From the IMG/VR virus record IMGVR_UViG_3300025674_000024, positions 21,660 through 85,659 of that record: DNA of 64,000 bases; one strand, given 5' to 3'. The stretch comes from a virus. Each line of letters opens with the position of its first letter. The first letter of the stretch is position 1. The notes under the pieces are model-generated. The model saw only the letters and a program-made list of their open reading frames with translations, was not told the DNA's origin and did no database searches. Below are positions 1 through 32,984 of this stretch, in pieces. The position numbers and the translations under genes were made by a program.

Positions 1-384
1 TGTAAGATCACCGATTTTGTCCTCCTCCTCATCCTCTCCTTCCTCCTCAACCATCTGAGCGGCGAGAGCTAGGAGCTCCTCGTCGGAAAGGTCGGAGAGG
101 TCGATGTCTTCCTCGATCTCATCCTCGTTCTCAGAACGGAGAGCGGAGAGAAGGTCTTCCTGACTCTGCTTGGTGTCCATGTAGTCTCCCTTTCCGTCGG
201 GATACTTCCACAGACCCGTCTTGTCGAGCCAGTCCGCTTTGAAGGGTGCGGTCTCCAACCCGAGTGTGTCACTACCGATCTTAACACCGGCGGTTTCCAC
301 ATCCTCAGCTTGGGAGAGTTGGTTAGAGTAGGCTTCCCTCAGTTGGTCGTAGGCCTCCTGAGAGAATTGACCGAAGCCTGACAT
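1..384 (-). CDS. Acidic protein with effector-array-type leader (partial; runs off the window)
   Basis: Not in the ORF track. Manual translation from ATG 384 gives MSGFGQFSQEAYDQLREAYSNQ...EEEGEDEEEDKIGDLT with no stop to position 1. GGGTAAAA motif 27 nt upstream. Leader resembles the G-x-F-S-x-E-A leaders of neighbouring genes. Confidence 0.8.
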   Translation of the reverse strand, partial: MSGFGQFSQEAYDQLREAYSNQLSQAEDVETAGVKIGSDTLGLETAPFKADWLDKTGLWKYPDGKGDYMDTKQSQEDLLSALRSENEDEIEEDIDLSDLSDEELLALAAQMVEEEGEDEEEDKIGDLT

Positions 385-442
385 GTCGTTGTCCTAGACG
401 TACCTGAGTGTTTTACCCAGCCAGTTTGGACATTGTCATTCC

Positions 443-604
443 TTAGAGGTAGGCTGCGGCGAGAGCTTCTTCTTTCGTGACCTGCCCGCGGCGCTGCATC
501 TCCTCGGCGAGGTCCAAGAGACGCTCGGCCTCTTCGTTCTTGCCTTGGAAGATGAGTTCCTTACGCTTAGCAATAAGGTCGAAGTACTTTGATTTGGATG
601 CCAT
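443..604 (-). CDS. 53-aa small protein directly after the kinase gene (candidate cognate inhibitor)
   Basis: Manual translation MASKSKYFDLIAKRKELIFQGKNEEAERLLDLAEEMQRRGQVTKEEALAAAYL*; starts 2 nt after the kinase stop. Confidence 0.7.
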   Translation of the reverse strand: MASKSKYFDLIAKRKELIFQGKNEEAERLLDLAEEMQRRGQVTKEEALAAAYL

Positions 605-606
605 GA

Positions 607-2322
607 TTAGATCCCGTCGTAAAGTTCGTTGATGTACCGTTCTGCGTCTTGGTCAGTCATCCTACCAAAGATCCTGTTAATTCCGTCCATGGAAGTGCGG
701 ATCTCCGCATTGACTCTGACTCCGAAGTCTTCCTCCATCTTGTCTCTCACTTTCTGAGAGTTGGACACGAAGCGTTGGACAGAGCGAGTGTTGTAGTCCT
801 TAACCCGCATACGGTCCGCTTGCCAGTCACGGCCATTGGTCGTTCCGAGAGCCTCAATGAGAGCTGCTTTAGGACTAGTCTGAGCGAGACCGAAGTCCAC
901 GAGCCCGCCCTTGCCAGTGCTCTTATCGTAGAAGAAGTTCCCGCCGTGCATGTCGTTGTGAGCGACGCCGCGAGTGTGGATCGCTTTGCGTACGCGGAGA
1001 TACTCGTCAGTCGCCGCTTCTTTCTCCTTAGAAGTCATCTGCCAGCGTTGGTCACCGTACGGCTCTCCCGCCATGCGAGACATACCAAGGTAGCCCGAGG
1101 CTTCCTTTACGTGACCACCTAAACCCCCCATCACTATCTTAGCCTTCCCAGAGACCGTGGCTCCGTGTAGAGTTGGCGTCACACCGCTTCCCTCAAGCTT
1201 TTTGATTGCAGCGGCTTCAAACTCTCCAATCTTCCCTTGCTTCGTGACTCCCGGAGGAGGACCCTCGGTCAGCTTCACTCGACCCATAGCGCCTTGGCCG
1301 ATGAGCTGTCCTGGACCAGACATGTCTTTCTTCGGGTCATAACCTTTAATTCCTTGCGGGATGTCAAAGCTTGTCTTCTCACCCACAGCTTTACCTCTTT
1401 TCGCTCTCCCTCCAGCACCCTTGGGAAAAGCACTGCTAGACACGCCTCTTTTACGAAGCTCACCTTCCACTCTCTTTCGCTGGTAAGCGTTAAGCTTCTC
1501 CTCCTTAAGGATTCGCATAAGCTCGGGAGTACGAGCGCCCTGGAGAAGCTTCTTGTTAACAACCATCGCTTTCTTAGGCGGGAGTGTTGAAAGTTTAGCA
1601 GCGGCTTTAGCGGCTTTAGCTTTGGTAACATCACCTGCTCGAGCTATCTTTTTAAGATCCTGCTGCATCGCTCTTTCAATGGAGCCGTAGAGTTTCTTCG
1701 CTACAGGATCCTTGGCTTCTTCCTTGGCCTTGCGAACTCGAGCCAAGCCCTTTTGCATTTCTTGAATCTTATTCTCTATGGCCAGTGTCCCTTCACCCTT
1801 AGGCTTAGGGGGAGTAGGGGGCGCCTCTCCCAGCACTCTCCTCACCATCTCTCGGCGAGCGGCGAGACCGCGAGACCCGGCCGCGAGCTGTTCACGCTCG
1901 AGAGACCGCTTTCCAAGCTCTTCCAGCGGACGGTCCTTGGGCTTTTGCTGTTGATCCTCGTCCTTAGGCTTTAACCTCTCTCCGAGGCGACGAGCGGCGG
2001 ACTTAAGCGGAGCACCTTTCTTAACGATCTTGGCACCGTACTTCTCACGGACCGCATCCGCTACGGACTTCACATCTGCTTGCTTCAGGCCTCTTTCCTT
2101 GGCCTTCTTCGCGATTGCGGGCATGCCCTCTCCGGGCTTCACAGAGATAGGAGTTCCTTTGCGGCATTGTCCCTGAGTGCCGTACACGCTTCCATCGCGA
2201 CGTTGGCACAGTTGCGCAAACTCGAAAGAGTCGTACTCTCCCTCGCTGAATTCTTCTACGAGAGAGTCTTTAACATACGAAAGAAGTTCTTCGTCGAACT
2301 CCCCGTGTTGCGAAAGCTTCAT
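607..2322 (-). CDS. CQRxDG-module protein with C-terminal Ser/Thr-kinase-like domain
   Basis: N-terminal CQRRDGSVYGTQGQCRKG; Lys-rich linker; kinase motifs IGQGAMGRV (Gly loop), VTK, HNDMHGGN (catalytic loop), DFG. Confidence 0.85.
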   Translation of the reverse strand: MKLSQHGEFDEELLSYVKDSLVEEFSEGEYDSFEFAQLCQRRDGSVYGTQGQCRKGTPISVKPGEGMPAIAKKAKERGLKQADVKSVADAVREKYGAKIVKKGAPLKSAARRLGERLKPKDEDQQQKPKDRPLEELGKRSLEREQLAAGSRGLAARREMVRRVLGEAPPTPPKPKGEGTLAIENKIQEMQKGLARVRKAKEEAKDPVAKKLYGSIERAMQQDLKKIARAGDVTKAKAAKAAAKLSTLPPKKAMVVNKKLLQGARTPELMRILKEEKLNAYQRKRVEGELRKRGVSSSAFPKGAGGRAKRGKAVGEKTSFDIPQGIKGYDPKKDMSGPGQLIGQGAMGRVKLTEGPPPGVTKQGKIGEFEAAAIKKLEGSGVTPTLHGATVSGKAKIVMGGLGGHVKEASGYLGMSRMAGEPYGDQRWQMTSKEKEAATDEYLRVRKAIHTRGVAHNDMHGGNFFYDKSTGKGGLVDFGLAQTSPKAALIEALGTTNGRDWQADRMRVKDYNTRSVQRFVSNSQKVRDKMEEDFGVRVNAEIRTSMDGINRIFGRMTDQDAERYINELYDGI

Positions 2323-2325
2323 GAG

Positions 2326-4182
2326 CTACCTACTGCTTACTCCAAAGATGATCTGGAACCAAACTTCCTCATCTTTTTCAAGACTTTCGGCGAAGTCTAA
2401 CCCCTCAATTTTACCGTTCTTAATCACCCCGGTCAGCAAGTTATTTCCCTGATGCTTAAACCCAAGTTTTTCGTACGCTTTTCTACGAACGTCGCCTCCA
2501 CCATCCTCATCAAAAGCGAACGCTCTTACTTTCGTCCCGCTAGGAAGTCCGCCAAGAGCTTCATCAAACTGTCTCTTCGCTGTAAGAGCAATTCTTACCT
2601 GCTGACGACGGTCTGTGACTCCACCTTTGGTGTAGGAATCGTTGACCTTATAGCCAATCTCATAAGATCCGTCCGTCTTTGGAGTGACGAGAGTCTTAAC
2701 TTCGTTACTCCCAACCTTATCAGTGATGTACACTCCCTCAGAGTCACTAGAGACTTTGTCTTTGCTTTCTCCCTTCTTCAGTCTCTCTTCTACTTTCTTA
2801 ATTTTCTCTCCTCTCTTCTTGGCCTCTGGGCTTCCCTTTTCTTCTTGCGCCTTAATCTTTGCGGCGACGCTCATCGCTTCCCTGTTAAGTCTCAGGGCCG
2901 CGTCCATATCACCCTTAGCCATAGCCTCCTGAGCTCTCTTTGCTAAGCCAGAGTACTGAGTCTGAAGGTCGGGTTCTGCTTTCTTTTTAGTTTTAGGCTT
3001 AGTTGCTGTCGGCTTCCCTGAGAGTTCTTTCTTTGCTTGTTCCTTTGTCTTCTTTCCCTCTGCCACATCGAGAGCGGCTTTCGCTCTCTTGTTTCCAGAG
3101 GCCGCGGCTTTCTTCAGGGCCTTCATCTCTTTGGGACCCACGGGAGTACCTTTCCGACAGGTTCCCGAAGTCCCATAGAAGGTCCCGTCCGCACGCTGAC
3201 AACGAGCAAACTCAAGTGAATCCGCTTCGTTAAAGTCGTTTTTCTTATCGGGAGCTCCAAAAATAGCGATGTACCACAGAGCTGTGTCTTTGTCCTTGCC
3301 CTCTGCAAACATCAGGAGAGTGCTGCCTAAACCTTGCTCGGCCCTGTCGGAGGCACTTACTTTTCCACCTTTTCCAATGCGCCCATACTGTGTCCCAGGA
3401 TTTGCATCGGTTCCAGAAGTCGGATCTGAAAAACCCATTCGTTTATAGGCTCTAATTCGAGACGCGCCTCGCCCGTCCTCTCCCCAAGCTGTAGCTTGAA
3501 CTACATAACCTTCAGGCAAGTTTTGTCTATGAGCGTTCCAGACACGCTGAACTTGGCGAGCAATAGCCATTTGCTCTTTCCGGTCTGTGATTTGACCAGC
3601 GTCATACTTGCCGTTGACTTGAAAGTTAAAATCGCCTTGACCAAATGATGTGGTAACTACTGTTCCTCCAGGAGTTGTGAAAGTAGTTCCAAGAAATCCA
3701 TTAGACTTAAATTCAACTTTGGTTCCTTTTGGAACGTCTTTCGTGACTCCTTCCACAACTTTTTCTGAGTTGGTGATGGGCTTGAGAGACTTTTCAGCTC
3801 GCTCTTTCATGAACCCTGCAAATTCATCTTCAGGGTCTTTTTTCAAATACTCGTTTGCTTTCTTTATTTGGTCTTCATAAATCTTTTTGTCTTTTTCAGC
3901 CTTAGCAATAGGACCGAGGGTACCCTTTAGGGTGCCACCTCTTTCGTAGTCAGTAGGCTTTTTAGGAGTTGTCTTTCCTTCAACAACTTTCAAAGCTGCT
4001 TCAGCTTTTTTATTGCCGCTTTTAGCCGCTTTCTTCAGAGCATCGACTTGCTTTTCACTAACTTGCTTTCCTTTGCGGCAAGTTCCAGCAGTGCCGTAAA
4101 ATGTCCCATCGGGACGTTGGCAACGAGCGTAGTCAAGGACTGTGTAAGCGCTCTCTGAGAATGTGGAGTACGTACGTTTCAT
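2326..4182 (-). CDS. Tandem (CQRxDG module + GNAT-like domain) x2 protein
   Basis: Two copies of the Cys module, each followed by a homologous domain (VNGKY...DRKEQMAIA...AWGEDGRGASRIRAYKRMGF and VNDSY...DRRQQVRIA...AFDEDGGGDVRRKAYEKLGF) ending in a GNAT-like Y-x-[KR]-x-G-F motif. Confidence 0.65.
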   Translation of the reverse strand: MKRTYSTFSESAYTVLDYARCQRPDGTFYGTAGTCRKGKQVSEKQVDALKKAAKSGNKKAEAALKVVEGKTTPKKPTDYERGGTLKGTLGPIAKAEKDKKIYEDQIKKANEYLKKDPEDEFAGFMKERAEKSLKPITNSEKVVEGVTKDVPKGTKVEFKSNGFLGTTFTTPGGTVVTTSFGQGDFNFQVNGKYDAGQITDRKEQMAIARQVQRVWNAHRQNLPEGYVVQATAWGEDGRGASRIRAYKRMGFSDPTSGTDANPGTQYGRIGKGGKVSASDRAEQGLGSTLLMFAEGKDKDTALWYIAIFGAPDKKNDFNEADSLEFARCQRADGTFYGTSGTCRKGTPVGPKEMKALKKAAASGNKRAKAALDVAEGKKTKEQAKKELSGKPTATKPKTKKKAEPDLQTQYSGLAKRAQEAMAKGDMDAALRLNREAMSVAAKIKAQEEKGSPEAKKRGEKIKKVEERLKKGESKDKVSSDSEGVYITDKVGSNEVKTLVTPKTDGSYEIGYKVNDSYTKGGVTDRRQQVRIALTAKRQFDEALGGLPSGTKVRAFAFDEDGGGDVRRKAYEKLGFKHQGNNLLTGVIKNGKIEGLDFAESLEKDEEVWFQIIFGVSSR

Positions 4183-4460
4183 CCGCTGAAGAATCCTTTG
4201 CTGTAGAGAGACTCGCCGTAAAGGATGGCTGCAGCTGTGGAATTGGCAACATCCTCCAGGTCAGGTACATCATCGCCACGCTCGGCCATGCGAGTGAAGA
4301 AGGAGATGAGAGCGAAAGCACCATCTAAGTCTGTGAACTCGTCTCCGATGAAGTCTCCGCGACGAATGCCGTAGGGACTTCCATCTTTCGCGAGAGCGAT
4401 GATGATGAAGTTGGAGCCGGGGATGGAGATGGGCTCGGGAAGGTAGAAGAGTTGGTTCAT
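4179..4460 (-). CDS. 93-aa small acidic protein after the DUF3626 gene (candidate cognate inhibitor)
   Basis: ATGA overlaps with both neighbouring genes; lacks the Cys module. Confidence 0.7.
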   Translation of the reverse strand: MNQLFYLPEPISIPGSNFIIIALAKDGSPYGIRRGDFIGDEFTDLDGAFALISFFTRMAERGDDVPDLEDVANSTAAAILYGESLYSKGFFSG

Positions 4461-6226
4461 TTGTAGTAGCGAGAGATGGCCTCGATGTCCCGGTAGTTCG
4501 GGTCAGTGCGCTCGATCTTGAGATCGTTCATCTGAGGAGGAAGTTCCACGATCCTCACTCCCTGCTTCTCGAGCGCTCTGCGGGTAGCGGTGGGGATGTC
4601 GTGTCCTCTGTAGTATCTTACCTCTTTGATATCCGAAGTGCGTAAGCCGCCGTGGATCTGAGCTTCGACGTAGGCGGTCGGGAGGCGCATCCCGCCGTCC
4701 ATTGACGTCGTCATATTCATACGCTGACCGATCGTCCCGCCATTGTACTGGATGTCCTGCACCTGCGTGCGAGGGCTGCTCGGGTTAGCCGGGTCACGGA
4801 CAGGACTGGCCATGATGCCCCTCGGCCGAGCTGCGTCCAGAGAGTCCCCAACAGTAAAGGTCGAGCGGTCCTTAACGCTGTTGTTAAAGACGACTTGCAC
4901 TCCTCCGTACTGCGCCATCTGGTTCGGACCACCCTGCAGGGAACGAGCTCGGTCCGGGTGCTCCAGCGCTGCGTACACCGGGCGCTTTTCCGGAGCTTCC
5001 AACTTCGAGATCCCCATCACAGCCTCCTCTCCGCTCCTTCTTCCTTCGAGGTACCCGCTCTTGCCTCGCTTGATACCGCCCGTTCCAGCTTGGAACCCGT
5101 TCTTCGCCTCTCCCTCTTTGACGAACTTTGCGAAGCCTTTGGGGTTGAAGGCCATGACGGGTTCTGCACCGTCGAGAAAGTCCTTGAGGTCCTTGTCAGC
5201 ACCCCCTCTGGGGACTCGAGTCGGCACGGACGCTGCGACTGTCCCTCCACCGTCAGAAGGAGCTTTGGTGAGCTTTATTGGTTCCCCAAAGTACGCCGCG
5301 TTGACTCCGTCGCGTGGCAGGTCGTTAGCTTTGATCCTTAGGTCGGTAGCCCTGGCTTCGAGAGCTTTTGACGGGTGGTCCTTCGGCGTGTTGTACGCAT
5401 TGAATCCGTCTTTCTCGGCCAGCTCTCTAGCCTTCCGATTCAGCCGATCAGACTCGTCTGTCAGCTTCTTACGCTCTCCCGTGGCCTTGATGAACTCATC
5501 GCGGTCCTGCGCGTGGTAGGCTTGACGCATGAGGAGAGCGGCTTCGTGAGCCTTCCCGATCTTTGCGGAAAGGGCCTTGACCTCCGGATCTTTCCAGTCC
5601 TTCCCCTGCTTCGACAGCTCCGCTGCTTGCTCCTTGAGTTTAGCTTCTCGGTCGAGAGCTCGGTTGAACACCTCCTTGACTTTTTCGTCGGAGATCTTCG
5701 TCGGGCGCTTGCCCGAGTCTTGTGCCGGAGCGGAAACTTCCTCTTTCTTCTTCTCCGCTTTTGGAGTAGTAGCCTTGGGTGCCGGTGCAGGTTCTTCCTT
5801 CTTAGGCTTAGGCTCGGGTTTGACCGAGGCGGGCTTAGGCGCGGGTGTGGGAGTGAAGTCGGGCTTTACCTCCTCTCCCAACCTCTTCTTAATCTCTTTG
5901 AAAGCCGCTACGAGCTCCGGCCCCTTCTTAATCTGCTTGACGCCGAACTTCTCTCTCACTTGGTCCGCGATGGCTTTCACTTCGGCGCCCTTGAGACCCG
6001 CGGCCACGGCTTTCTTATAGAGCACGGGCATACCCTCACCCGGCTCGAGAGTGATCGGCTTTCCTTTGCGACACTGCCCACTCGTTCCGTAGACGGAGCC
6101 GTCTGGGCGCTGACACGCTTGGCCAAACTCGAGAGAGTCGCTGAGTTCGGAGTAGCGGAGAGTGAGCACTTCACGTGCTTTAGCTTCTAAGGAGGAGTCC
6201 CAGCCTCCGTGTTGTGAAAGTCTCAT
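4457..6226 (-). CDS. CQRxDG-module protein with C-terminal DUF3626 (ART-like) domain
   Basis: CQRPDGSVYGTSGQCRKG; C-terminal RPVYAAL, YGGVQVVF...KDRSTFTVGDS and YVEAQIHGGL...DI motifs typical of DUF3626. Confidence 0.75.
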   Translation of the reverse strand: MRLSQHGGWDSSLEAKAREVLTLRYSELSDSLEFGQACQRPDGSVYGTSGQCRKGKPITLEPGEGMPVLYKKAVAAGLKGAEVKAIADQVREKFGVKQIKKGPELVAAFKEIKKRLGEEVKPDFTPTPAPKPASVKPEPKPKKEEPAPAPKATTPKAEKKKEEVSAPAQDSGKRPTKISDEKVKEVFNRALDREAKLKEQAAELSKQGKDWKDPEVKALSAKIGKAHEAALLMRQAYHAQDRDEFIKATGERKKLTDESDRLNRKARELAEKDGFNAYNTPKDHPSKALEARATDLRIKANDLPRDGVNAAYFGEPIKLTKAPSDGGGTVAASVPTRVPRGGADKDLKDFLDGAEPVMAFNPKGFAKFVKEGEAKNGFQAGTGGIKRGKSGYLEGRRSGEEAVMGISKLEAPEKRPVYAALEHPDRARSLQGGPNQMAQYGGVQVVFNNSVKDRSTFTVGDSLDAARPRGIMASPVRDPANPSSPRTQVQDIQYNGGTIGQRMNMTTSMDGGMRLPTAYVEAQIHGGLRTSDIKEVRYYRGHDIPTATRRALEKQGVRIVELPPQMNDLKIERTDPNYRDIEAISRYYK

Positions 6227-6420
6227 TCTTTCTCCACGCTTCGCTTTCTCAACTCCGCCTCTATTGCCTTTCGCCCGCGCTGTGCGAGTTTATCTTTCGT
6301 CTTATTTTCTTTCTCTAGAGAATCCGCTTGACTAGGAAGTCCAAAAATGTATGGATCACCAGCCTCACTTCGACCCATCCTCTCCCGCACTTCTTGAGGT
6401 CTTTTAGGTTGAATTTTCAT
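6223..6420 (-). CDS. 65-aa small protein after the ART gene (candidate cognate inhibitor)
   Basis: Starts 2 nt after the ART stop and overlaps the next start (ATGA). Confidence 0.6.
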   Translation of the reverse strand: MKIQPKRPQEVRERMGRSEAGDPYIFGLPSQADSLEKENKTKDKLAQRGRKAIEAELRKRSVEKE

Positions 6421-6422
6421 GA

Positions 6423-8054
6423 TTAGACTTCCTCCACGGTGAAGATGTGCATCGGCTCGCCCTCAAATGTTTCAACGCGGTGGTTCGTGTATCTATATTT
6501 TGTGCCGCCAGGAGTTAGTATCTCTTTCTCGCCGCTCTGACCAAAGTTTTCAACTGAAGCTCCGGTTCTATTACGCGTTTCAAAGATAACTCTCGCGCGA
6601 TCTTGCACGACCTTACCGGTATATCCCGCTGAGATAAGGGCACTAGTAGACCACGAAGCCGGTGCGGGATCACTAAAAGTACTCTTAGATTGCGCTGCTG
6701 AAATCATCTGATCTAGCGCTGAACTCGGAATGTTAATTCCACGGTACTTTTCTACGTCAGGATGGTCCATTCGCGAAAGCATTTGATCGATTCTCTGCGC
6801 TTGTTTAGCCCGTATTGAATCGGACCCTGGCTGTTCAACTGCCCGTCTAATCGCTCGATAGTCATTTCGTGTGAAGTCGACGATGGAGTCAATACCTTTT
6901 TGAACTTCACGCTCGTCTCCACCGTATGCCTTAATAAGAGCTTTTGCCTGTTTAGACGTACCTAATTCACCCCATTCTCCAAAAATCGCTGTAGAGTTCT
7001 TATGCGCCCCATTTTGAGAAGGATTAGAGTCAGAATCCAGTAGTTTGATCATACTCCGCGACATTTCATATTTACTAAACCGCTCATTGGGGTCTAATTT
7101 CGCATATTCAATCCGGCGGTCTGCCTCTTCCACCCTGTCTTTAATCGGTTTCAAAAGCGCCTGTCTTTCTGTCCAAGAAGCCCCACTTTCTAAAAGTTTC
7201 ATATCGTTCTCTTTCGCGACTTTTAACTCTTTTTTTGCTTGTGTTCGGTCACGAATTGCCACAGCCATTTCTTTCAGATCTTTCGCATCTCTTAAGTTTA
7301 TGAGATTGTAATAGCGTTCTTGATTCTCATCAGAATCACCGGTAGCTTTTTTGCGAAGTTCGCGAAGACTGCTTATTTGATTGTTTATGCGAATTTGTTG
7401 GGCTTCTGTGAGTTGTTTAGGCGTAGGTCTTGAGAAGATACCTCCCTCAATTGCTTTTCTATCATCAGCGATTCTTTGGAGTTGGTCTCGGATAGTGTAC
7501 ATCCGATCGTCAGCTTCGTCACTTCCCGTCTTTTCAAACTCTTCCTTAGCTGCTTTCATTGCAGCTTTAAGTCGAGTTTCTGTGGAATTGATTAGCTGAA
7601 GAGCCTCTTTTTTCTTCGTCTCAGCGTCAGAACCATCCGTCTCCTCTTTTACCTTTTGTTCCTCTCTATTTAAGTTCCTACGTGCTTTTTTACTCTTTTC
7701 ACCAAGCTCTCCGTCTTTCTTCTCATCCTCAGCCCTACCTTGCTCAGGCTTCTTTTGGCTTTTTACGGGCTTTGGAGCGGGCTTGATCGCGCTAGAGGCC
7801 TCTTGAGTTGCTGACGGTTTGAGCCCAGGTTTTTCTGGGTCCTCCGTCCTAGAAAGTTTCTCAAGTGCTTTCTTTGCCCCGGAGTCTCCAGCTTTTGCTT
7901 TAGCCTGCAACTCTTTAATCTCTCTGGGGCCGACCTCCTTGCCTTTACGGCATTGTCCAGAGGTTCCGTAAAAGCTCCCGTCTGAGCGCTGACATCTTGC
8001 AAAGTCAAGGACTTCTAAAGCTTGCTCTGAAAATGTTGAATAAAGTCTTTTCAT
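6423..8054 (-). CDS. CQRxDG-module protein with C-terminal VIP2/Alt-like ADP-ribosyltransferase
   Basis: True start is probably ATG 8054 (MKRLYSTFSEQ; ATGA overlap). R-S-E triad: KYRG, SWSTS, GEKEIL...GTKY. Confidence 0.8.
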   Translation of the reverse strand: MKRLYSTFSEQALEVLDFARCQRSDGSFYGTSGQCRKGKEVGPREIKELQAKAKAGDSGAKKALEKLSRTEDPEKPGLKPSATQEASSAIKPAPKPVKSQKKPEQGRAEDEKKDGELGEKSKKARRNLNREEQKVKEETDGSDAETKKKEALQLINSTETRLKAAMKAAKEEFEKTGSDEADDRMYTIRDQLQRIADDRKAIEGGIFSRPTPKQLTEAQQIRINNQISSLRELRKKATGDSDENQERYYNLINLRDAKDLKEMAVAIRDRTQAKKELKVAKENDMKLLESGASWTERQALLKPIKDRVEEADRRIEYAKLDPNERFSKYEMSRSMIKLLDSDSNPSQNGAHKNSTAIFGEWGELGTSKQAKALIKAYGGDEREVQKGIDSIVDFTRNDYRAIRRAVEQPGSDSIRAKQAQRIDQMLSRMDHPDVEKYRGINIPSSALDQMISAAQSKSTFSDPAPASWSTSALISAGYTGKVVQDRARVIFETRNRTGASVENFGQSGEKEILTPGGTKYRYTNHRVETFEGEPMHIFTVEEV

Positions 8055-8467
8055 TGTTCGTCGGCTCTGTTCATCTGTCCCTTGATCTTCTCTGCCCAGG
8101 CTTTGCCGGCATCGCCTCCCCATAACTCCCAAGAAACTTTTGAAGCGGAGGGTGGGTTGGTAGTGTGGTTCTTCTTGTAGGCGGAGTGACGAGCGAAGAA
8201 GCTGACCATGCGACCAATCGTCCCGGGAGAGAGTTTCTGACGGTTCTTCAGCGAGGCGGCTCGAGCCACTCCGCTTCCGATCCCGGCTTTCCCGGCCTCC
8301 TTAGTCGACAGTCCACCGCGTCCCACTTGTTTGCGCAGAGCGAGACCGCGAGCGGCGGCATCAGCCACGGACTGGGGAGGGCGGAAGTCTATGTTAGCAT
8401 ACTTCTCCGCCCACTCCGGATTCTCGGCCCACTCGAGAGCCTCTTCGCTGAAATGTCCGCCAATCAT
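8051..8467 (-). CDS. Conserved phage head-associated domain protein with array-type leader
   Basis: Leader GHFSEEAL. Domain PP..VA..A.RGL...RA..L...LS..TI.RM.SFFARH...SWELWGGDAG..WA resembles one I recognise from phage head-module proteins. Confidence 0.55.
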   Translation of the reverse strand: MIGGHFSEEALEWAENPEWAEKYANIDFRPPQSVADAAARGLALRKQVGRGGLSTKEAGKAGIGSGVARAASLKNRQKLSPGTIGRMVSFFARHSAYKKNHTTNPPSASKVSWELWGGDAGKAWAEKIKGQMNRADEQ

Positions 8468-9069
8468 CGCGCTCTCACGACTTTGTTTTTGATCCCTCTC
8501 TTAATGGCTTCCTCAGTCATCGCTCTGCGGCGTTGCTCAGGAGTCATATTAGCGAGTTCAGCCTCGCGCTTAGCACCTTGGCCGCTCCGCATCTCCACCT
8601 TAAGGCGGTCCCCCATGGCCTTTTTGATGATCTTGAGTGTCCCCTCCTTGGCGTCAATATCTCCTTCATCCACGGCCTTCATCACAGCTTTGTGGATCTT
8701 TCCGAGGTGAGCTGTGGTCTCCGCTTTAGCGTACACCTTGTCAAAGAGTTTGTCGTGTGTGTCTCCCCACGAGTAAGCTTCCGACTTAGCGGCTTCTTTG
8801 ACCTCGGCCAATGCGGAGGAACTCATAGGCCCTGCGCCACCCTTGGGAGGCTTCACACCGAGATCCTCAGGGCTCACCTCTTTGCCCTTGCGACACTGGC
8901 CTCCAGTGCCGTACTTGGAGCCGTCAGGGCGTTCGCAGGTGGTGAAGTCGTACGCTTCGGAGAAGCTCTGGGCGCTCTCGTCGTAACTGTCTGAAGCACC
9001 GTGCTTTTCAGCGTAAGCCGCATAGAGCTGCTCGATGGATTCGGGTTTAAAGGTGCCTTGGGGTTTCAC
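8464..9069 (-). CDS. CQRxDG-module protein with short helical C-terminus
   Basis: SFSEAYDFTTCERPDGSKYGTGGQCRKG. Confidence 0.75.
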   Translation of the reverse strand: MKPQGTFKPESIEQLYAAYAEKHGASDSYDESAQSFSEAYDFTTCERPDGSKYGTGGQCRKGKEVSPEDLGVKPPKGGAGPMSSSALAEVKEAAKSEAYSWGDTHDKLFDKVYAKAETTAHLGKIHKAVMKAVDEGDIDAKEGTLKIIKKAMGDRLKVEMRSGQGAKREAELANMTPEQRRRAMTEEAIKRGIKNKVVRAR

Positions 9070-9172
9070 GGGTCTGAGGTAATTAAGCCTATTTTAAACC
9101 ATCTAAGCGGGTTACCCACGCTCCTTGATGATCTTGTCGATGCGACGAACTTCAACTTTTTGAGCGGCTCAT

Positions 9173-9835
9173 CTACATGCGCTCCATCTTCTTCGCACGA
9201 GCGAAGTCGGCTTTTGCCTGAGAGTTACTAGTATAAGCTAGTGCTCGCATCCATCCCACTAACTCTTTTCTGTCGTAACTATCAAGGATTCCGCCTTGAT
9301 CTCTACGCTTTTTCAAGAGCTTTTTGATGTTGTCAGCATTGATCTTAGCCTGACCCCCCTGCTCTTCTGCTCTCGCAATGGAGCTTTTCACGGCCGGCAT
9401 AAGCTTTCCTTCGCCACCACTCCCTCTTTCGACGACTCTGAGGATTGTGCGAGAGTCTTTAGACGCTTCTTTTTTGATAGCCTCGAGCTCACTTAGCGTC
9501 TTCTCGTCGCCAGCACGGCGCTGAGCTGCTCGCTCGAACATCCCCTTGGTCTTAGCGGCAGCGGTGGCCTTGTCCTTTTCGCGGCGCATGACGGCTGGGT
9601 TGCTGGCCGCGCCCTGCTTGAGCTTCTCGGTGGGGGTCATCTCTTTCGCCCCAGCCTCCTTGCCCTTGCGGCACTGACCGCCAGTTCCGTAGAAGCTACC
9701 GTCGGGGCGCTGACAGCGGGCGAAGTCGTAGGCCTCGGCGTAGGCCAGTTGGTCCTCGGGATTCTCCGAGTACTTGAGTTCGGCGAGGGCTTTGGCGGCG
9801 GCCAACGCTTCGTCTGTGAAACGGTCTTTCCGCAT
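9173..9835 (-). CDS. CQRxDG-module protein with basic helical C-terminus
   Basis: AYAEAYDFARCQRPDGSFYGTGGQCRKG; GGGTAAAA motif upstream. Confidence 0.75.
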   Translation of the reverse strand: MRKDRFTDEALAAAKALAELKYSENPEDQLAYAEAYDFARCQRPDGSFYGTGGQCRKGKEAGAKEMTPTEKLKQGAASNPAVMRREKDKATAAAKTKGMFERAAQRRAGDEKTLSELEAIKKEASKDSRTILRVVERGSGGEGKLMPAVKSSIARAEEQGGQAKINADNIKKLLKKRRDQGGILDSYDRKELVGWMRALAYTSNSQAKADFARAKKMERM

Positions 9836-9895
9836 GAGTCTGCTTTAATAGGAATGGGTTCCTCTTTTGGGTTTTACCCATTTCAATTATACACT

Positions 9896-9918
9896 AAAAA
9901 GCCCGGGCCTCCCTGGGC
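9896..9918 (-). terminator. Rho-independent terminator after the HNH gene
   Basis: Minus strand GCCCAGG-gagg-CCCGGGC followed by TTTTT. Confidence 0.6.
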
Positions 9919-9937
9919 CAAACTACTATGAGGAGTT

Positions 9938-10594
9938 TCAATCGTCGTATCTAGCTAAGACGTGAAAGACTGAGGAGTTCTTAAGTCTTATGGACTCAGC
10001 AACGTACAAGTCTGGATCAACAATTTGCTCGAACGAGTACCCCAAAGACAAAAGCTTAACCATGTTCCCGTACGTTTTCCATTTCTTCTTTCCTAGAGCT
10101 TTAGCTATGCGATATCCCGTGGAATGCCCGCTAAGATACTCTCCCCATGCCGCCTCATACTCCCCCTCGGTCCAATGCTTCCTCTTTGAAGCCGCGGCTC
10201 TTTGAGCCTTTATCGCCTGAGAATCAGAATACTCTGGCGTCCCCCTGTGCTTATCGTGCATTTTCCTCGCTCGTTCTTGAGCTGGTTTCCACATCAAGCC
10301 TTTACTTTTTGCCTCCTTGATCTTTTCCATTAAGGCTAAACTTCCTCTTTCTCCGCCCTTCATTGCTGCTTCCACTAAGGGAAGATAGGAGTCTTTGCCA
10401 TGCCAAACATGAGCGTGAAAACTTGGAGAGCAAACGTACAGATTGCTTGGGTCATTAGTTCCACCTTGACTTTGAGGGATGCGATGGTGAACGTGCATCC
10501 CTTTCATCTGCTGATCCGTAAGACCCCAGTTCTCTTGAGCTATAGCCCTATAGTGTCTACGATCAACTTTGACTAGGCTAGACTCCTTCTTCAT
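9938..10594 (-). CDS. HNH homing endonuclease
   Basis: HVHHRIPQSQGGTNDPSNLYVCSPSFHAHVWH; C-terminal helix-turn-helix-like segment. Confidence 0.85.
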   Translation of the reverse strand: MKKESSLVKVDRRHYRAIAQENWGLTDQQMKGMHVHHRIPQSQGGTNDPSNLYVCSPSFHAHVWHGKDSYLPLVEAAMKGGERGSLALMEKIKEAKSKGLMWKPAQERARKMHDKHRGTPEYSDSQAIKAQRAAASKRKHWTEGEYEAAWGEYLSGHSTGYRIAKALGKKKWKTYGNMVKLLSLGYSFEQIVDPDLYVAESIRLKNSSVFHVLARYDD

Positions 10595-11409
10595 TAGTCT
10601 TCGTACCTGCTAAGGATTTTGCCGATCACGGAGTTTCTCACTACATCTTCTCGTGTAAACCTCACTCGAGCCACTTCATCAATGTTTGCCAACCGGTGAT
10701 AAGCGTCTAAGAGGCCGTTGTCTGAGTTGAAAACCTCAAGATCAACCTGCTTAGTATCACCAGTGACTACAACTCTAGAGTTTTCAGAAACTCGAGTCAA
10801 AACAGTCTTGACATTATGGATAGTACTGTTTTGAGCCTCATCAAAGATGATTAGACTATCCGCAAAGCTTCGTCCTCGAATGTCCTCCAGCAGGATTGGC
10901 TCAATGAGTTTCTTGTTCATTAGGTACTCAGCTGCACCCTGAGAGCGCATGATCACTGAGAGATTATCAAACACCGGACCTACTAACGGGGCCATCTTTT
11001 CTTCCATAGTTCCAGGAAGAGCACCACGGCCTCTTTGGTGCATAACTCCAACGTCAGAACGAAGGTAGAACACCTTATTGATCAAGTTTTTCCTGAGTGC
11101 CTCAAGTCCCCAGTGAAGAGCGACAAGAGTTTTACCAACTCCACTTGGACCAACGGCTATGGTCACAGTATGGTGGTTGATTGCTTCCCACAGATCATCT
11201 TGACGGTCAGTCAGAGGATTGAACGGGAGCAGATCCATCGTGTTGCGGTGGACGTCGCTCAACATCGCAGCTTCTCGGGCCCGACGTTCTTTACGACGCT
11301 CTTTGCAGGCTGGCATTATGTTAACGGAATTGAAGGTTTGGGTGTCGACTCGGACAACTCTTAGGCGATCATGCGAATCACCTCCATTCCCGCTTGATGT
11401 AGTATCCAT
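10594..11409 (-). CDS. phoH: PhoH family ATPase
   Basis: GPSGVGKT, LPGTMEEKMAP, IRGRSF, DEAQN, TGDTKQVDL, DVVRN. Confidence 0.95.
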   Translation of the reverse strand: MDTTSSGNGGDSHDRLRVVRVDTQTFNSVNIMPACKERRKERRAREAAMLSDVHRNTMDLLPFNPLTDRQDDLWEAINHHTVTIAVGPSGVGKTLVALHWGLEALRKNLINKVFYLRSDVGVMHQRGRGALPGTMEEKMAPLVGPVFDNLSVIMRSQGAAEYLMNKKLIEPILLEDIRGRSFADSLIIFDEAQNSTIHNVKTVLTRVSENSRVVVTGDTKQVDLEVFNSDNGLLDAYHRLANIDEVARVRFTREDVVRNSVIGKILSRYED

Positions 11410-11503: not shown

Positions 11504-13192
11504 CTAGTCAATGCCTACATCGTAACGTATATCCTGTCTCCCTCCTCTCCCCTTACCGAAGAATAGGCTGCTCTCCGCAGGTGTGAGCAACTCTCTCCTC
11601 CTCCCAGTCTTCATCTCTCCGAACTCTTTCATCAGATCTTTACGACCCGAGCTCCTGCCTAAGCTACTCCTCAGAGCGTCGTTAAGCTCCGCTCCTCCCC
11701 CGTCAAGATGGAACATGTAGTAGGTACACGCCCAGACGACGGAGTCTGTACGGTCATCATGAGGGACGTGAGGGAACGCTGTGAGTTCCTTGATGAAGTC
11801 CTGAACCCACGCCCCATCTACGAACTTCACTCGTTTGGCTTCAAAGAGCGGGCATATCGTCTGGAGTCGGATCGTCTTGGACTTCAGAGGCTTAAACGGA
11901 TGGACTTGGATCTTGCTCTCGCGTTCCAGCACCTGAATGAGTGATTGCCCAGAAGCGGCTTGCTCGATCGTCATGAAGCGTGCGCCATAATACTTCTGAG
12001 TCTGCTCCACCATGGCCATGAGGTCTGGGAATCCCCATCTCCCGTGCACAAGCTCTCGGATGTAGATGTTGTCAGGATCTTTGCGACTAAATCCCGCTAC
12101 GCATATCACACTCTCGTCAGCCTGTTGCCTCTCGGAGAACGCCGTGTCGAGTGATAGGTAGGTGATGTCAAACTCCGGACACTCGTCTGGGTCTATGACT
12201 TGGACCCACCCGGCCTTGACAATAGAGCCTTCCTGAGCCGTCGGAGTCCCTTGGTACAACGCGGCGAACTTACTGCTTCCCATCGCGCGCTTTTGCGACA
12301 AGAGCATGTCCGTCGTGAAGACGGGGTTTGATGGCCAGTGAGACTCTCCGTTCTTACGGCCTAGAGGGTCTGTAGACTCGTTCTCGCAGATCCCGGGGAT
12401 GTTGATCCAACGCCAGCCCGTCGGATTCTCCACCTCATCATACATCCCGTCGCCGTCCATGAGAATCCCGTGAAGGTCTCTTTCATGGAAGCGCGTGCCG
12501 ATGAGTATTTGCGCCCAGCGGTTGGTGCGGCGTGTGGAAGCTTGTTCACCCCAGAAAGTCTCAAGACCTTCTAAAGCGGCTCTAGAATCAGACCCCTTCA
12601 GTGGGTCATCAATAACGAGGGCCCCAACTCCGGGACTGTCCATCGCAGGTGTACCCGCCGTGAAGCCTGTAAGAACTCCTCCCACTGAAGTAGCTAGGAT
12701 GTATCCCCCTCCTCTTATCCCATACTTTTCATCTGGGATAAAGCCCTGCCACTCTGGGAATACTTTCGTAAAATATTTATGCCTTAAGTACCCAAAGATC
12801 CCTCTATGAAACTTGTTGGAGAGCTGCTGCCCGTACGAAGCAATGATGTGCTGGGTCTGTTGATCTCTCCCAAGTAGCCATGCTACAAAGAGTTGAGAGA
12901 GCATAGACTTCCCAGAACGAGGCGGGCAAGAAACGATAAAGCGTTGATAGCGCCATTCCGCCACATCTTCAAACCCAGAAGCTATGATTTCATGAAATGG
13001 CTCCACCACTAACTTCCCATCAAGCATAAGATCAGAGAAGGCTAAAAAGCAACTTCTTGCTGCTCTATACTTATAGTCTAAGATGATACTTTTCGGGGCC
13101 TCCATGACCGTGAGTTCTTGGAGCCCTCTCTTATAGACTCTCCAGGAAGAAAACTCTTCTAGTTGAGAGACATGGCTAATGATAGGCCTCAT
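11504..13192 (-). CDS. terL: Terminase large subunit
   Basis: PPRSGKS (Walker A), VIDDP (Walker B), GTRFHERDL, ALYQGTP; nuclease domain SLDTAFS...IEQAASG...FPHVPHDDRTDS. Confidence 0.95.
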   Translation of the reverse strand: MRPIISHVSQLEEFSSWRVYKRGLQELTVMEAPKSIILDYKYRAARSCFLAFSDLMLDGKLVVEPFHEIIASGFEDVAEWRYQRFIVSCPPRSGKSMLSQLFVAWLLGRDQQTQHIIASYGQQLSNKFHRGIFGYLRHKYFTKVFPEWQGFIPDEKYGIRGGGYILATSVGGVLTGFTAGTPAMDSPGVGALVIDDPLKGSDSRAALEGLETFWGEQASTRRTNRWAQILIGTRFHERDLHGILMDGDGMYDEVENPTGWRWINIPGICENESTDPLGRKNGESHWPSNPVFTTDMLLSQKRAMGSSKFAALYQGTPTAQEGSIVKAGWVQVIDPDECPEFDITYLSLDTAFSERQQADESVICVAGFSRKDPDNIYIRELVHGRWGFPDLMAMVEQTQKYYGARFMTIEQAASGQSLIQVLERESKIQVHPFKPLKSKTIRLQTICPLFEAKRVKFVDGAWVQDFIKELTAFPHVPHDDRTDSVVWACTYYMFHLDGGGAELNDALRSSLGRSSGRKDLMKEFGEMKTGRRRELLTPAESSLFFGKGRGGRQDIRYDVGID

Positions 13193-18581: not shown

Positions 18582-19319
18582 TTAGGCTCCTCCAAACCAG
18601 TCTGAGTCAAGTGGGTTATAGCTTTGATATGAGTAGGCTTCATCAGTTGTAGGAGCAACTTTATCCCAAATCGTTCCTTCATCCACGGGTTGCTCTCCGT
18701 CTCCGTCTGAGTCGGGTGGCTGTCGCCCGTCGTCTTGATCCTGATGAATGTGGTTAAGATCAATGTGTCTCACCCAAAAGTAAGTCCCCCTTCTTTTAAG
18801 ACAAACACACAACCAATCGCTGCCGCATGGTCCTCCCTCCTCAATACACATGCACCCGATATTCTCCTCCGTTGGAGGCGGAAGTTCTCCGGAGGGATAC
18901 ACCGACAAACGAGTCATAGCCGAGTTCATGGGCTGCTCGGCTTTCTCGAACTCGTTAGGGTCGAAGATTGGGTCGCCAAAGTTAAGGCGGTTGGGATCTC
19001 CGTTGCGAGGGACAATAGGAACCCGTGCCTTCTTGTCTACGAGAGCTTGAGGCTGCTTTCCTTTGAGAGGAACGATCGGATAGATCCAGTCCGTCTCGGT
19101 CGGTTCTCCCGCTTGATCGAAGTCTTTCCCTTGGAGAAACTCAGGATTGACTTCATCGAGGATGAGCCTCACACGCCCGAGTTCTTCGGGATCTTCCACG
19201 TCAATGACTGTCCCGTAGGTGTTCATCATCTGACCGCTAAGATTAGCGGCCTGCTGAGCACCACGGAACGATCTGAGGAGGACTCCGGCGAGTTGGTCTA
19301 CGTTGTGATTTGTTGACAT
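18582..19319 (-). CDS. Baseplate spike/hub (gpV/gp5 OB-fold)
   Basis: YGTVIDVEDPEELGRVRL...TDWI...NGDPN. Confidence 0.7.
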   Translation of the reverse strand: MSTNHNVDQLAGVLLRSFRGAQQAANLSGQMMNTYGTVIDVEDPEELGRVRLILDEVNPEFLQGKDFDQAGEPTETDWIYPIVPLKGKQPQALVDKKARVPIVPRNGDPNRLNFGDPIFDPNEFEKAEQPMNSAMTRLSVYPSGELPPPTEENIGCMCIEEGGPCGSDWLCVCLKRRGTYFWVRHIDLNHIHQDQDDGRQPPDSDGDGEQPVDEGTIWDKVAPTTDEAYSYQSYNPLDSDWFGGA

Positions 19320-22600: not shown

Positions 22601-23387
22601 GAGAGAGAATGTCGTCAAGGCTGAGACCTTCTTCCTCGCTGAAGCCGTGAACGTCAAGAGCATCAAGAAGGAAGTGTGCGGAGATATGATTACCTTTGTT
22701 GCCCCAGACTCCGAAGAACTGTGACAGGAGCTGCTGGGAAGTCCAGTCGGAGATGTCACTCCACTCCTCGACAAAGAAGAGGAACGGCTTAGCGTCTGAG
22801 CCGTCCAAGAAGATTTGGATGCCAGACGGAGCCGCGTCGAGTAGGCGGACCGAAGTGATCCCCTGAGCGAGGTCCTGAGTGACAAACAGGGAAGAGTCAG
22901 TCTCGTTCGTAGTCCTCGCGTCCACGAGGCCGTCAAAGATGTACTCTCCTCCGGAGATCAACACCGGGGTCTCGGAGTATAGCAGTTCCTCGGGCTGGCC
23001 TAGCGGTACTAAGCCGACTCTCCCATCCTTCTCGAAGACGTGGAAGAGAAAGTCAGCCGAGGCTCTTACCTCGTCCCGACGGAACGGTGCTGGCCTATCT
23101 TCGTACGGCTTATCTTTGTCATATACACCAAACGTACCGACTTGGACCGCTCTCTTCTCAGACACCGTCTGAGGCAGTCCTTTCCACTTATATGAACCGT
23201 CCGTCGTCTGGATGCGCTTGCCCCAGTATCCGTCTCCGTTGAAGCCGAGGAGTTGGGCATTCCAATCCAACTGCCCGTTGACTCGGGAGAGAACTTTGTT
23301 GAGAGTTTCCTTCTGCTTATCTGTAAAGACCTCTGGCAGATGGCCTCTCAGCTCATACTGCTCCTTGTCAAATATAGGACGTGGCAT
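19608..23387 (-). CDS. Large acidic, Cys-rich baseplate/tail structural protein
   Basis: 1259 aa in the baseplate cluster; many D-[NDG]-G-x-[YF] repeats. Confidence 0.6.
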   Translation of the reverse strand: MPRPIFDKEQYELRGHLPEVFTDKQKETLNKVLSRVNGQLDWNAQLLGFNGDGYWGKRIQTTDGSYKWKGLPQTVSEKRAVQVGTFGVYDKDKPYEDRPAPFRRDEVRASADFLFHVFEKDGRVGLVPLGQPEELLYSETPVLISGGEYIFDGLVDARTTNETDSSLFVTQDLAQGITSVRLLDAAPSGIQIFLDGSDAKPFLFFVEEWSDISDWTSQQLLSQFFGVWGNKGNHISAHFLLDALDVHGFSEEEGLSLDDILSQLTIVDLLNMVGLKPGPATAYLTDHYNFKVEDCDELYQPTVSLETKIIRLETQNLEQLLLENGQELSIDDGPCTTEVFVGLGLETDGPEESTTITDNGTFEALITNPPVDFLDNGDYPSTATSTIEDVGIFNQGRAELFTERDDAITIDDRSMDLSECYEPPDAEFGVCETPNYVLTLRQYFDSEPNEIATDPGPETSIPIGCNGVQFLFPPTCFIDNGEYPSILGQFYLDGGDYDFPIIFTNSVGDGLYDRDPFSVCDGLPEDYERTIDFDDLVVDVAGEAGATLYTDAGVGNEILIAASGTDADGYDGDTIAFDGLELSELSFEYEAKTTYGETRFPCVEWIFDPSLDNSTYFPIPAEAAWMGTDDGEYDRLVGSRAFVGQTDLDCVSGGVIDGFLSFDDGVFDEIVVPNCDYESSIPPNCEFVDGGLYQPGINPLRPPLSNTECGAECGTLDGGEYVYGADPGKDAVLIYGGIIDTCTLYDNSEYDLVQPPGLICIAYNNGSFAGGSLPPIDCVVQDNSTFISSTPYSEPPIDDGFFSTGAVTVLIELTTESLLEITTEGDDSIAVDPAILIPITEPLNCIPCVSGDSPDPIEVACTLDNGRIETTPLPTEDKDSGYYDKEIDPFCEPCFDPGNPEVFPCPVEPIRVRLDQLIFSAPAWRMRPSVTHSLHPLRIWKNRVLNVSDPGLDNAFVNPLIADENTGPDDVASYRQHVRLPVDYQRNGKFWNRAESVMANQAYFSRLLPPSYTNLPVTDVLPLLYDEVYDEPPQDFDDYATFYVEDFLISTTEKSDTFLQDGFEDAVLSFEAPDSSSPLTLSAVLDYDGYQERKLNPDGTRPGSYFKFSDRGERLTGFLDTDVETFRLRPNDSTEPQVNDAPSLIIPNIEFPDDPDEASFTNYTVSYAYFVADLSAADDPVFDPAKFFCHREKVICKPEISNESITTEGGFEILTQDFEGIVTPSPAKLVEVPFITRSRYLFHSDEIPLCKGPVLYGQA

Positions 23388-32063: not shown

Positions 32064-32984
32064 CTACCTATACTTGATCACACACCGGCAGCGGTCATGG
32101 CACCTACACCCCACTCCTGGCATAGGGAGAGATCCGATTGGCACCCAGCCGAGAGAGTCGTAGTATTTGCAGTCCTCACACACTCTCCTATCGTGCTTTG
32201 AGCTGCGCCGCATCTCTTTGAATCCCTCGGTTCTCTTCTTGGAAGACTCCCCTGTGACGAACCATCTCCAGAGAGGAGTGACTAAGAATCTCTTAAGACG
32301 AGCGCCGAGTCCATTCCAGGTAGCGGGGCCTCTCTGCCTTTGCCTCGGTTTGGATTCCTTTTGAGCTTTCTCAGCCTGAGTGTCGGTCTCAGCGGTAGGA
32401 CTAATCTTACGGCCTTTGCCCTCTTTCTGAGTGTCTTTAACTGTAGTCTTAGCCGCTCGAATTGCCGCTTTGGTAGCTCGAGCCCCTGTGAGGGGGATGA
32501 CAAGAGATGTGGGAGCAGAGACTACCGGAGCTTCGAGATTTCTTTCATCTTGGGACACAGTGAGGGGTTGGTCTTCTCCCGGGACAGGATAGTACCAATC
32601 ATCATCCTCCTCCTCCTGGTAATTCTCCTCATCTGAGAGACGGTCATTATCCAGGGAAAGCTTGATGTCGTCAAAGAAGTTCCAGAGGTACTTCATCTGA
32701 CCCATCGTCTCGGAGTAGAGAGTCTGTGGGATCTTTGTCTCTCCCAGTCCTAGCATCACAGCTGCAACTGATGAGATAAGAGTATCCTCTGCAGAAGCCC
32801 TCTGGAACTCTGAGAAAGTGATCTTATTGGCTTTGAGCTTTCTTGTGAGGGCCTCAGCTCGGCCTTCCATCTCCGCCTCTAGGCCCTCAAGAGAGGTGAA
32901 GGATTCAGCTAAGCGCTGGGCACGGTCGATGTAACTCTCCCGGCGCTTAGCCGCCTGACCAATAAAGGACAGAAGCTCCATCAC
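32064..32984 (-). CDS. Head morphogenesis (MuF/gp7-like) protein
   Basis: C-terminal VCEDC...GWVPIGSLPMPG..CRC..RCRC. Confidence 0.7.
   Translation of the reverse strand: MMELLSFIGQAAKRRESYIDRAQRLAESFTSLEGLEAEMEGRAEALTRKLKANKITFSEFQRASAEDTLISSVAAVMLGLGETKIPQTLYSETMGQMKYLWNFFDDIKLSLDNDRLSDEENYQEEEDDDWYYPVPGEDQPLTVSQDERNLEAPVVSAPTSLVIPLTGARATKAAIRAAKTTVKDTQKEGKGRKISPTAETDTQAEKAQKESKPRQRQRGPATWNGLGARLKRFLVTPLWRWFVTGESSKKRTEGFKEMRRSSKHDRRVCEDCKYYDSLGWVPIGSLPMPGVGCRCHDRCRCVIKYR

Follow-up and report, generated by a model that had tools for sequence, protein, structure and literature searches.

Phages are known to package enzymes in ready-made form and to inject them, as exemplified by T4 Alt and the T4 internal proteins, P1 Dar, the N4 virion RNA polymerase and the polyvalent proteins. 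To our knowledge, the signals that select such cargo are known for very few phages. In T4, a short linear N-terminal peptide, the capsid targeting sequence (CTS), is present on the internal proteins IPI-III and on Alt, and is removed by the T4-type prohead protease; the internal-protein loci of T4-type phages are polymorphic. MuF toxins of temperate phages, found with a Mu-type head module, join a constant N-terminal part to a variable toxic C-terminus. Here we describe an array of six minus-strand genes (g1 to g6) in a 64,000-nucleotide stretch of viral DNA, referred to as the window, which comprises bases 21660-85659 of the 85,659-base IMG/VR virus contig IMGVR_UViG_3300025674_000024 (CheckV completeness 38%). 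The six proteins share a small module with two cysteines, and differ in their C-terminal domains. A megablast search with the array DNA gave no match in deposited phage records. We propose, with moderate confidence, that the array proteins are packaged cargo, with the module as the loading handle.

The array resembles the T4 CTS system in having a constant N-terminal element on unrelated, mostly basic proteins, an ADP-ribosyltransferase (ART) among the cargo, and several such genes per genome. It differs from it in that the element is a folded two-Cys domain of ~35 residues, which recurs internally in g2, and in the Mu-type head module of the phage. A tblastn search with the module against 50,697 deposited phage genomes, including many T4-like phages, matched only Synechococcus phage S-CBWM1, in two genes, which argues against membership in the T4-type CTS family. 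The preliminary description of this DNA, which was made from the sequence alone, had drawn an analogy to the MuF toxins. The functional likeness holds, but membership does not, as the MuF domain (PF04233) was not found in the six proteins or in the 85.6-kb contig, which is incomplete. The module is also ten times smaller, it is encoded in a multi-gene array, and the carrier phages look lytic.

Polyvalent proteins contain 2-15 effector domains per polypeptide, are encoded near the terminase and portal genes, and are predicted to be packaged and injected (PMC5512222). The array shares with them, and with virion-associated ARTs (PMC9503650), a repertoire of ART, kinase, GNAT and nucleotidyltransferase domains, and its own ART-, kinase- and GNAT-type domains are likewise encoded in a portal-terminase neighborhood. 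In contrast to polyvalent proteins, the effectors are here separate genes, each with its own module; g2 alone has two domains, which are homologous to each other. In the text of PMC5512222 covered by a term search, a two-cysteine module is not mentioned. S-CBWM1, the closest cultured relative and alone among cultured phages in having the module, is a non-T4 cyanomyovirus, the TerL of which is 50.6% identical to the large terminase of the window. It carries the module on gp39 and gp165, and its gp113 is homologous to g1, but its two module genes are scattered, and its kinases are headed by a different motif with four cysteines.

The two-cysteine module and its family

A regular-expression scan of the six-frame translation of the whole contig with the strict pattern C[QE]RxDG[ST]xYGTxGxCRKG gave exactly seven matches. 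All seven lie in six co-oriented tandem genes on the minus strand (607-9835), with none elsewhere on the contig, confirming the earlier count of six genes with seven module copies. Once aligned, the seven copies share 12 invariant columns. The stretch of 100 residues past each module is enriched in Lys, Ala and Glu, in agreement with the Lys/Glu-rich linker noted previously, and each of the six proteins has a net positive charge (+4 to +36).

The module is a real domain of ~35 residues, with two invariant Cys residues. An AlphaFold model based on 71 aligned copies (pLDDT, predicted local distance difference test score, of 78) contains a short helix, a beta-hairpin bearing the first Cys and the D-G turn, a third, short strand that follows the second Cys, and another helix. 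Neither Pfam nor PHROGs nor NCBIfam contains a match to the module. A profile search of the PDB returned a single match, a chance alignment of 11 residues to a beta-hairpin of FGF21 (E 0.09), and a Foldseek search with the model returned nothing below E 1.8. The suggestion that the module is not a named family was thus correct as far as these four databases are concerned.

DNA-associated internal head proteins, such as the T4 internal proteins, are basic, and the net basic charge of the six array proteins was counted as support for the head-cargo reading. The same charge would suit a module that acts as a nucleic-acid-binding or metal-dependent pairing handle, with packaging as a by-product of riding on DNA. 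Basic positions are kept within the module (the Arg after the first Cys, and the Arg-Lys after the second), and the Lys-rich basic linkers fit a DNA-binding handle. Each module provides two Cys residues, so that two modules would have to combine for a metal site with four ligands, and at least two copies are present in 24 of the best 150 module proteins from the family search below. However, the module shows no similarity to a known DNA- or zinc-binding fold, and lies nearly always at the extreme N-terminus, a position that is typical of a targeting signal and not needed for a DNA-binding domain. We consider this alternative unlikely.

The DNA of the module copies is just 68% identical, with the variation concentrated at third codon positions. 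Third-codon divergence around a conserved peptide indicates that selection acts on the module peptide. Recent gene conversion among the copies is ruled out by the same 68% identity and third-position differences.

A profile built from the window's seven copies was searched against 1.84 billion representative proteins, and matched 972 protein clusters at E ≤ 1e-3, of which 354 were at E ≤ 1e-10. Among the best 150 module proteins, the first module occurs at a median of residue 18, and lies no more than 40 residues from the N-terminus in 124. Pfam matches in these proteins include kinase families (9), ADPrib_exo_Tox (3), DUF6496 (3), CTP_transf_like, RIO1 and others, with nothing over the module itself. 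A scan of IMG/VR revealed 49 loci with one-strand arrays of two to six module genes. The C-terminal regions of 183 module proteins fell into 68 BLAST clusters, including 41 singletons, and the largest cluster consisted of kinases. This clustering was restricted to the C-terminal parts, because with single linkage the whole regions had merged g1, g2, g3 and g6 through their shared linkers. In ten further cargo types, Pfam matches were almost absent. The 68 clusters bear out the view of the module as a portable N-terminal element fused to unrelated C-termini, and the profile search and cargo catalogue, with 972 clusters and variable cargo, do the same for the variability of C-termini among homologs. 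One 687-residue module protein (locus L034, 1189-3252) gave a borderline match to FluMu_N (PF17891), a Mu-like prophage domain (25.3 bits, compared with a cut-off of 25.8).

Among 185,579 prokaryote genomes, the module was found only in four contigs of metagenome-assembled genomes, all of which carry module arrays and are probably binned phage DNA. This pattern scan used the window's seven copies, as the alignment of 71 copies was too diverse. A match in Thalassovita mediterranea was rejected as a chance match, because it failed the module profile. The module is therefore essentially restricted to phages. Five large carrier contigs (92-277 kb) encode TerL proteins 59-74% identical to that of the window, and contain 4 to 15 module genes each, and nearly all module carriers share a TerL of 50-82% identity. 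The module family is a lineage-specific expansion in S-CBWM1-like cyanomyoviruses. In three of the large relatives, a second, divergent TerL-like open reading frame (ORF; 33-34% identity) adjoins the main terL gene (G001:C1:208543-211257, G002:C1:135141-138167 and G005:C1:74313-77270).

The near confinement of the family to one TerL lineage, the tandem arrays, and the resemblance of g2 to two fused units are all compatible with a shared N-terminus that is a relic of serial duplication and domain swapping in one lineage, in proteins that act late in the cell and are not packaged. We regard this explanation as very improbable. A peptide kept across 972 clusters at 50% identity, in front of unrelated C-termini and with diverged third positions, points to selection on the module itself, and a module-bearing nicotinamide mononucleotide adenylyltransferase (NMNAT) has been reported in virions, according to the passages considered below.

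Cysteine motifs on enzymes reported in S-CBWM1 virions

The strongest support for virion cargo comes from S-CBWM1. In the passage of PMC10665884 that cites Xu et al. 2018, the APH, ChoK and Rio2 kinases and an NMNAT-like protein are listed as detected in S-CBWM1 virions, and the detection of NMNAT is repeated in a passage of PMC9602691, also citing Xu et al. 2018. The S-CBWM1 genome contains a single cytidylyltransferase/NMNAT ORF, gp39, in which the module lies directly upstream of the enzyme domain. The only other module gene is gp165, located apart from gp39. The S-CBWM1 kinases gp113, gp161 and gp162, together with gp106, start with a different motif, C-x-[KR]-G-K-S-C-G-x-x-C-[IV]-x(4,5)-C, which has no Pfam match. 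On viral contigs, 34 distinct proteins have this four-Cys motif near the N-terminus (median position 28), and 10 of these contigs also carry the two-Cys module. The motif was located at 19107-19200 and 22702-22800 of locus L001, at 1831-1900 and 2743-2810 of L066, and in loci L068-L115.

The array protein g1, which has the two-Cys module, is homologous to gp113, which has the four-Cys motif, and both genes are found at the same place after terL and phoH. Homologous cargo thus carries either tag. With the module on NMNAT and the four-Cys motif on the kinases, each of the non-structural S-CBWM1 virion enzymes named in these passages bears one small N-terminal Cys motif. Mention of a shared N-terminal element was not found in the passages that describe the enzymes (PMC10665884, PMC9602691). 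The preliminary description had read the array proteins as packaged virion effectors, and the part of this reading that concerns packaged enzyme cargo is supported by the NMNAT of S-CBWM1, as described in the same passages. The module itself may be the loading signal.

Of 160 modules, 131 (82%) have a short leader motif, [FY]-[SGAN]-E, no more than 14 residues upstream, compared with 7.5% of control segments. The spacing between leader and module varies (2, 4, 6 or 7 residues), which is more in keeping with a linear motif than with a rigid element of the fold. It also precedes some of the four-Cys motifs. In the protease-scaffold protein of the window (32981-35044), F-[SAG]-E occurs five times, compared with ~0.7 expected at the contig-wide rate. 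From its sequence context, the leader is a candidate prohead-protease cleavage or docking site. The same observations, namely the enrichment upstream of modules at variable spacing, the presence before some four-Cys motifs, and the five occurrences in the protease-scaffold protein, would allow the leader to be an assembly signal. The module could then be a regulatory or host-target docking domain, with virion loading specified by another element, such as the F-[SGA]-E leader. However, about a fifth of the modules have no leader motif, and a single host target is improbable for cargoes as unlike as NMNAT, kinases, ARTs and non-enzymatic tails. We give little credence to this alternative, and retain the module as the favored loading handle.

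Array genes and their genomic setting

g1 (607-2322, minus strand, 571 residues; module core at 2155-2208) contains a C-terminal protein-kinase-like domain. Its Pfam matches to ABC1 (22.7 bits), Pkinase (22.4 bits) and APH (21.8 bits), at E values of ~1e-4, are each just below the cut-off, and it matches phrog_18305, annotated as 'kinase'. It is 23% identical over 218 residues to the RIO-like kinase gp113 of S-CBWM1 (E 1e-9), and its H-N-D-M-H-G-G-N (HxDxxxxN) and D-F-G motifs align with those of gp113. These catalytic motifs and the profile match place g1, as a predicted member, in the protein kinase-like superfamily.

g2 (2326-4182, minus strand, 618 residues) consists of two units, each with a module (cores at 4069-4122 and 3148-3201), a linker and a predicted GNAT-fold domain. 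The first domain is a homolog of the second, and both have homologs among single-unit proteins elsewhere. An AlphaFold2 model of the first domain (pLDDT 76; pTM, predicted template modeling score, 0.75) was used in two structural searches. Foldseek returned mainly GNAT acetyltransferases, with weak scores (best E 0.077), and in a search independent of Foldseek, GNATs made up nearly all of the top 50 rows, at Z scores of 5.5-6.5, below the confidence level of the tool. A conserved stretch, D-G-R-G...R-A-Y-x-[KR]-[ML]-G-F, resembles the acetyl-CoA-binding motif A by eye only. A GNAT fold is likely but not secure for these modeled domains.

g3 (4457-6226, minus strand, 589 residues; module core at 6062-6115) has a Pro/Lys-rich linker, and a C-terminal domain probably related to DUF3626. 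The match to DUF3626 (PF12294; 21.5 bits, 1.3e-4) is below the cut-off of 27, g3 also matches phrog_8314 (1e-7), and in an ESM Atlas feature search, 26 of 30 matches were in DUF3626 clusters (score 0.94). PDB profile searches with the g3 C-terminus gave no relevant match. The Salmonella effector SopF is an ART. DUF3626 is a domain of this effector (PMC6682159).

g4 (6423-8054, minus strand, 543 residues; module core at 7941-7994) contains a long coiled, charged middle part and a C-terminal ART-like domain. An upstream TTG at 8132 was discarded as the start of g4 in favor of the ATG at 8054, which gives a product identical to the called protein P0020. g4 had no Pfam matches at E ≤ 0.1, and no relevant PDB profile match was found with its C-terminus. 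An alignment of its C-terminal 200 residues with 13 relatives shows an invariant R99, S128/S130 (Ser-x-Ser) and E170/E172 (Glu-x-Glu), in the R-S-E motif order of ARTs. g4 is similar to the module protein P0102 (BLAST 5e-5), which matches ADPrib_exo_Tox (PF03496) at 1.8e-4 and 21.3 bits, below the cut-off of 23.4, and three other module proteins match PF03496, with a best E value of 4.5e-12. These motifs and matches suggest that the g4 C-terminus is an R-S-E ART-like domain. Four different enzyme types had been proposed for the array. The domain types were recovered, but with SopF as an ART, two of the four, those of g3 and g4, may be ARTs of different families.

The remaining array proteins, g5 (8464-9069, minus strand, 201 residues; module core at 8884-8937) and g6 (9173-9835, minus strand, 220 residues; module core at 9662-9715), end in short, basic tails, and neither matches a family in Pfam, PHROGs or NCBIfam. 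The tail of g5 is conserved in six further module proteins, and g6, the first gene of the array, has the relatives P0003 and P0052.

Several small minus-strand ORFs are interleaved with these genes. A 138-residue ORF without a module (8051-8467) overlaps its neighbors g4 and g5 by 4 nt, and matches phrog_2859 (1.2e-12). It belongs to a viral family of hypothetical proteins, and an atlas search was uninformative, matching only viral hypothetical clusters. A 93-residue ORF (4179-4460) overlaps g3 at one end and g2 at the other, by 4 nt each, and might serve g3 as an inhibitor, chaperone or immunity partner. The pair of g3 and this ORF is kept in three other loci (L025, L028 and L037), with the same 4-nt overlap in L028. 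A 65-residue ORF directly after g4 (6223-6420), and a 53-residue ORF directly after g1 (443-604), have no relatives among the fetched loci.

The array is located within the late/structural gene block. The gene order on the minus strand is Portal_Mu (35084-36493), a Mu-like_Pro protease domain with a long scaffold-like C-terminal part (the fusion spans 32981-35044), a separate scaffold-like protein (32064-32984), the major head protein, the baseplate genes, a head-tail adaptor, terL (11504-13192), phoH (10594-11409), an HNH endonuclease gene (9938-10594), and the array. The match of the fused protease to Mu-like_Pro (PF10123) scores 25.9 bits, compared with a cut-off of 25.2. Next after the array are genes for an acidic protein and for two small proteins, the latter apparently membrane-spanning as judged by eye, and then tail-fiber-like genes, all on the minus strand. 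A second, similar HNH gene is located outside the window, at bases 1-362 of the contig, and GIY-YIG-like ORFs are present among the tail-fiber genes; homing endonucleases are frequent in this genome. Among the 49 array loci in IMG/VR, terL is near the array in 22 and phoH in 14.

The motif GGGTAAAA occurs at 10 sites in the window, on the minus strand only, compared with 0.96 expected (positions 411, 9872, 11435, 14490, 18302, 28614, 32028, 35075, 41389 and 42832). The sites lie mostly 15-60 nt upstream of gene starts, including those of protease, head, baseplate, phoH and array genes. By its placement, GGGTAAAA is a candidate late-promoter element, and probably the core of the late promoter of the phage. 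Only one site precedes the array (9872-9879, ahead of g6), and just before this site, a G+C-rich hairpin with a T-run (~9895-9921) ends the HNH gene. The next site (411-418) starts the next unit, with the acidic protein that runs off the start of the window. With a single site before the array and the next at 411-418, g6 to g1 look like one late transcription unit. The array had been described as lying downstream of terL and phoH, behind the same motif as the structural genes; the motif site and the order hold, with the amendment that the HNH gene intervenes.

Packaging as a candidate role of the module

We propose that the array encodes virion cargo proteins that are expressed late. Each would be composed of a short leader, usually with F-[SGA]-E, the two-Cys mini-domain, a basic Lys/Ala/Glu-rich linker that is probably disordered, and an exchangeable C-terminal domain. 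The mini-domain would be the shared handle for uptake into the Mu-type prohead, through binding to the scaffold/protease core or to DNA, and the leader might be cleaved in the process. The enzymes, comprising a kinase, GNAT-fold domains and two ART-type domains, would be ejected with the genome, and may modify proteins of the host as the next infection begins.

Several points weigh against this proposal. For the present phage, virion cargo is predicted from the genes, and the S-CBWM1 virion data are second-hand, through the passages of the citing papers. One of these, in a passage on virion preparations, cautions that non-structural proteins, when abundant, can remain in virion suspensions purified with CsCl (PMC9602691). 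Incorporation might be caused by the leader, the linker or the cargo rather than by the module. Because the carriers share a TerL lineage, the synteny of the module with terL and phoH mostly reflects common descent, and is not independent evidence. In addition, many module genes of S-CBWM1 and of the 277-kb relative lie outside the structural block, and in the large carrier contigs some module genes form clusters far from terL.

A stronger form of the proposal is possible, but we hold it only tentatively. Here, the mini-domain and the F-[SGA]-E leader would form a self-sufficient, transferable label that loads any fused protein into a Mu-type prohead of these cyanomyoviruses for ejection into the host, and the four-Cys motif would be a second, interchangeable label. 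The carried arsenal, of up to 15 proteins per genome, would be large and would diversify rapidly, and would be organized like a polymorphic toxin system.

The principle of packaging is known, but the module, its four-Cys counterpart, the scale of the family and the cargo catalogue are undescribed, as far as our literature searches reach. The module is a widespread candidate signal (972 clusters) with natural fusions to kinases, two ART families, GNAT-fold domains, NMNAT and dozens of unknown domains, and the cultured pair of S-CBWM1 and Synechococcus CBW1002 makes it testable. If the module is the handle, this would explain the presence of kinases and NMNAT in cyanophage virion proteomes, and about 60 unknown cargo families would be flagged as effectors that act early, in cyanophages abundant in freshwater and estuaries. 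It would also provide a small tag with which proteins could be loaded into phage heads. On the stronger, label form of the proposal, the cargo would represent pre-made enzymes for host takeover or anti-defense.

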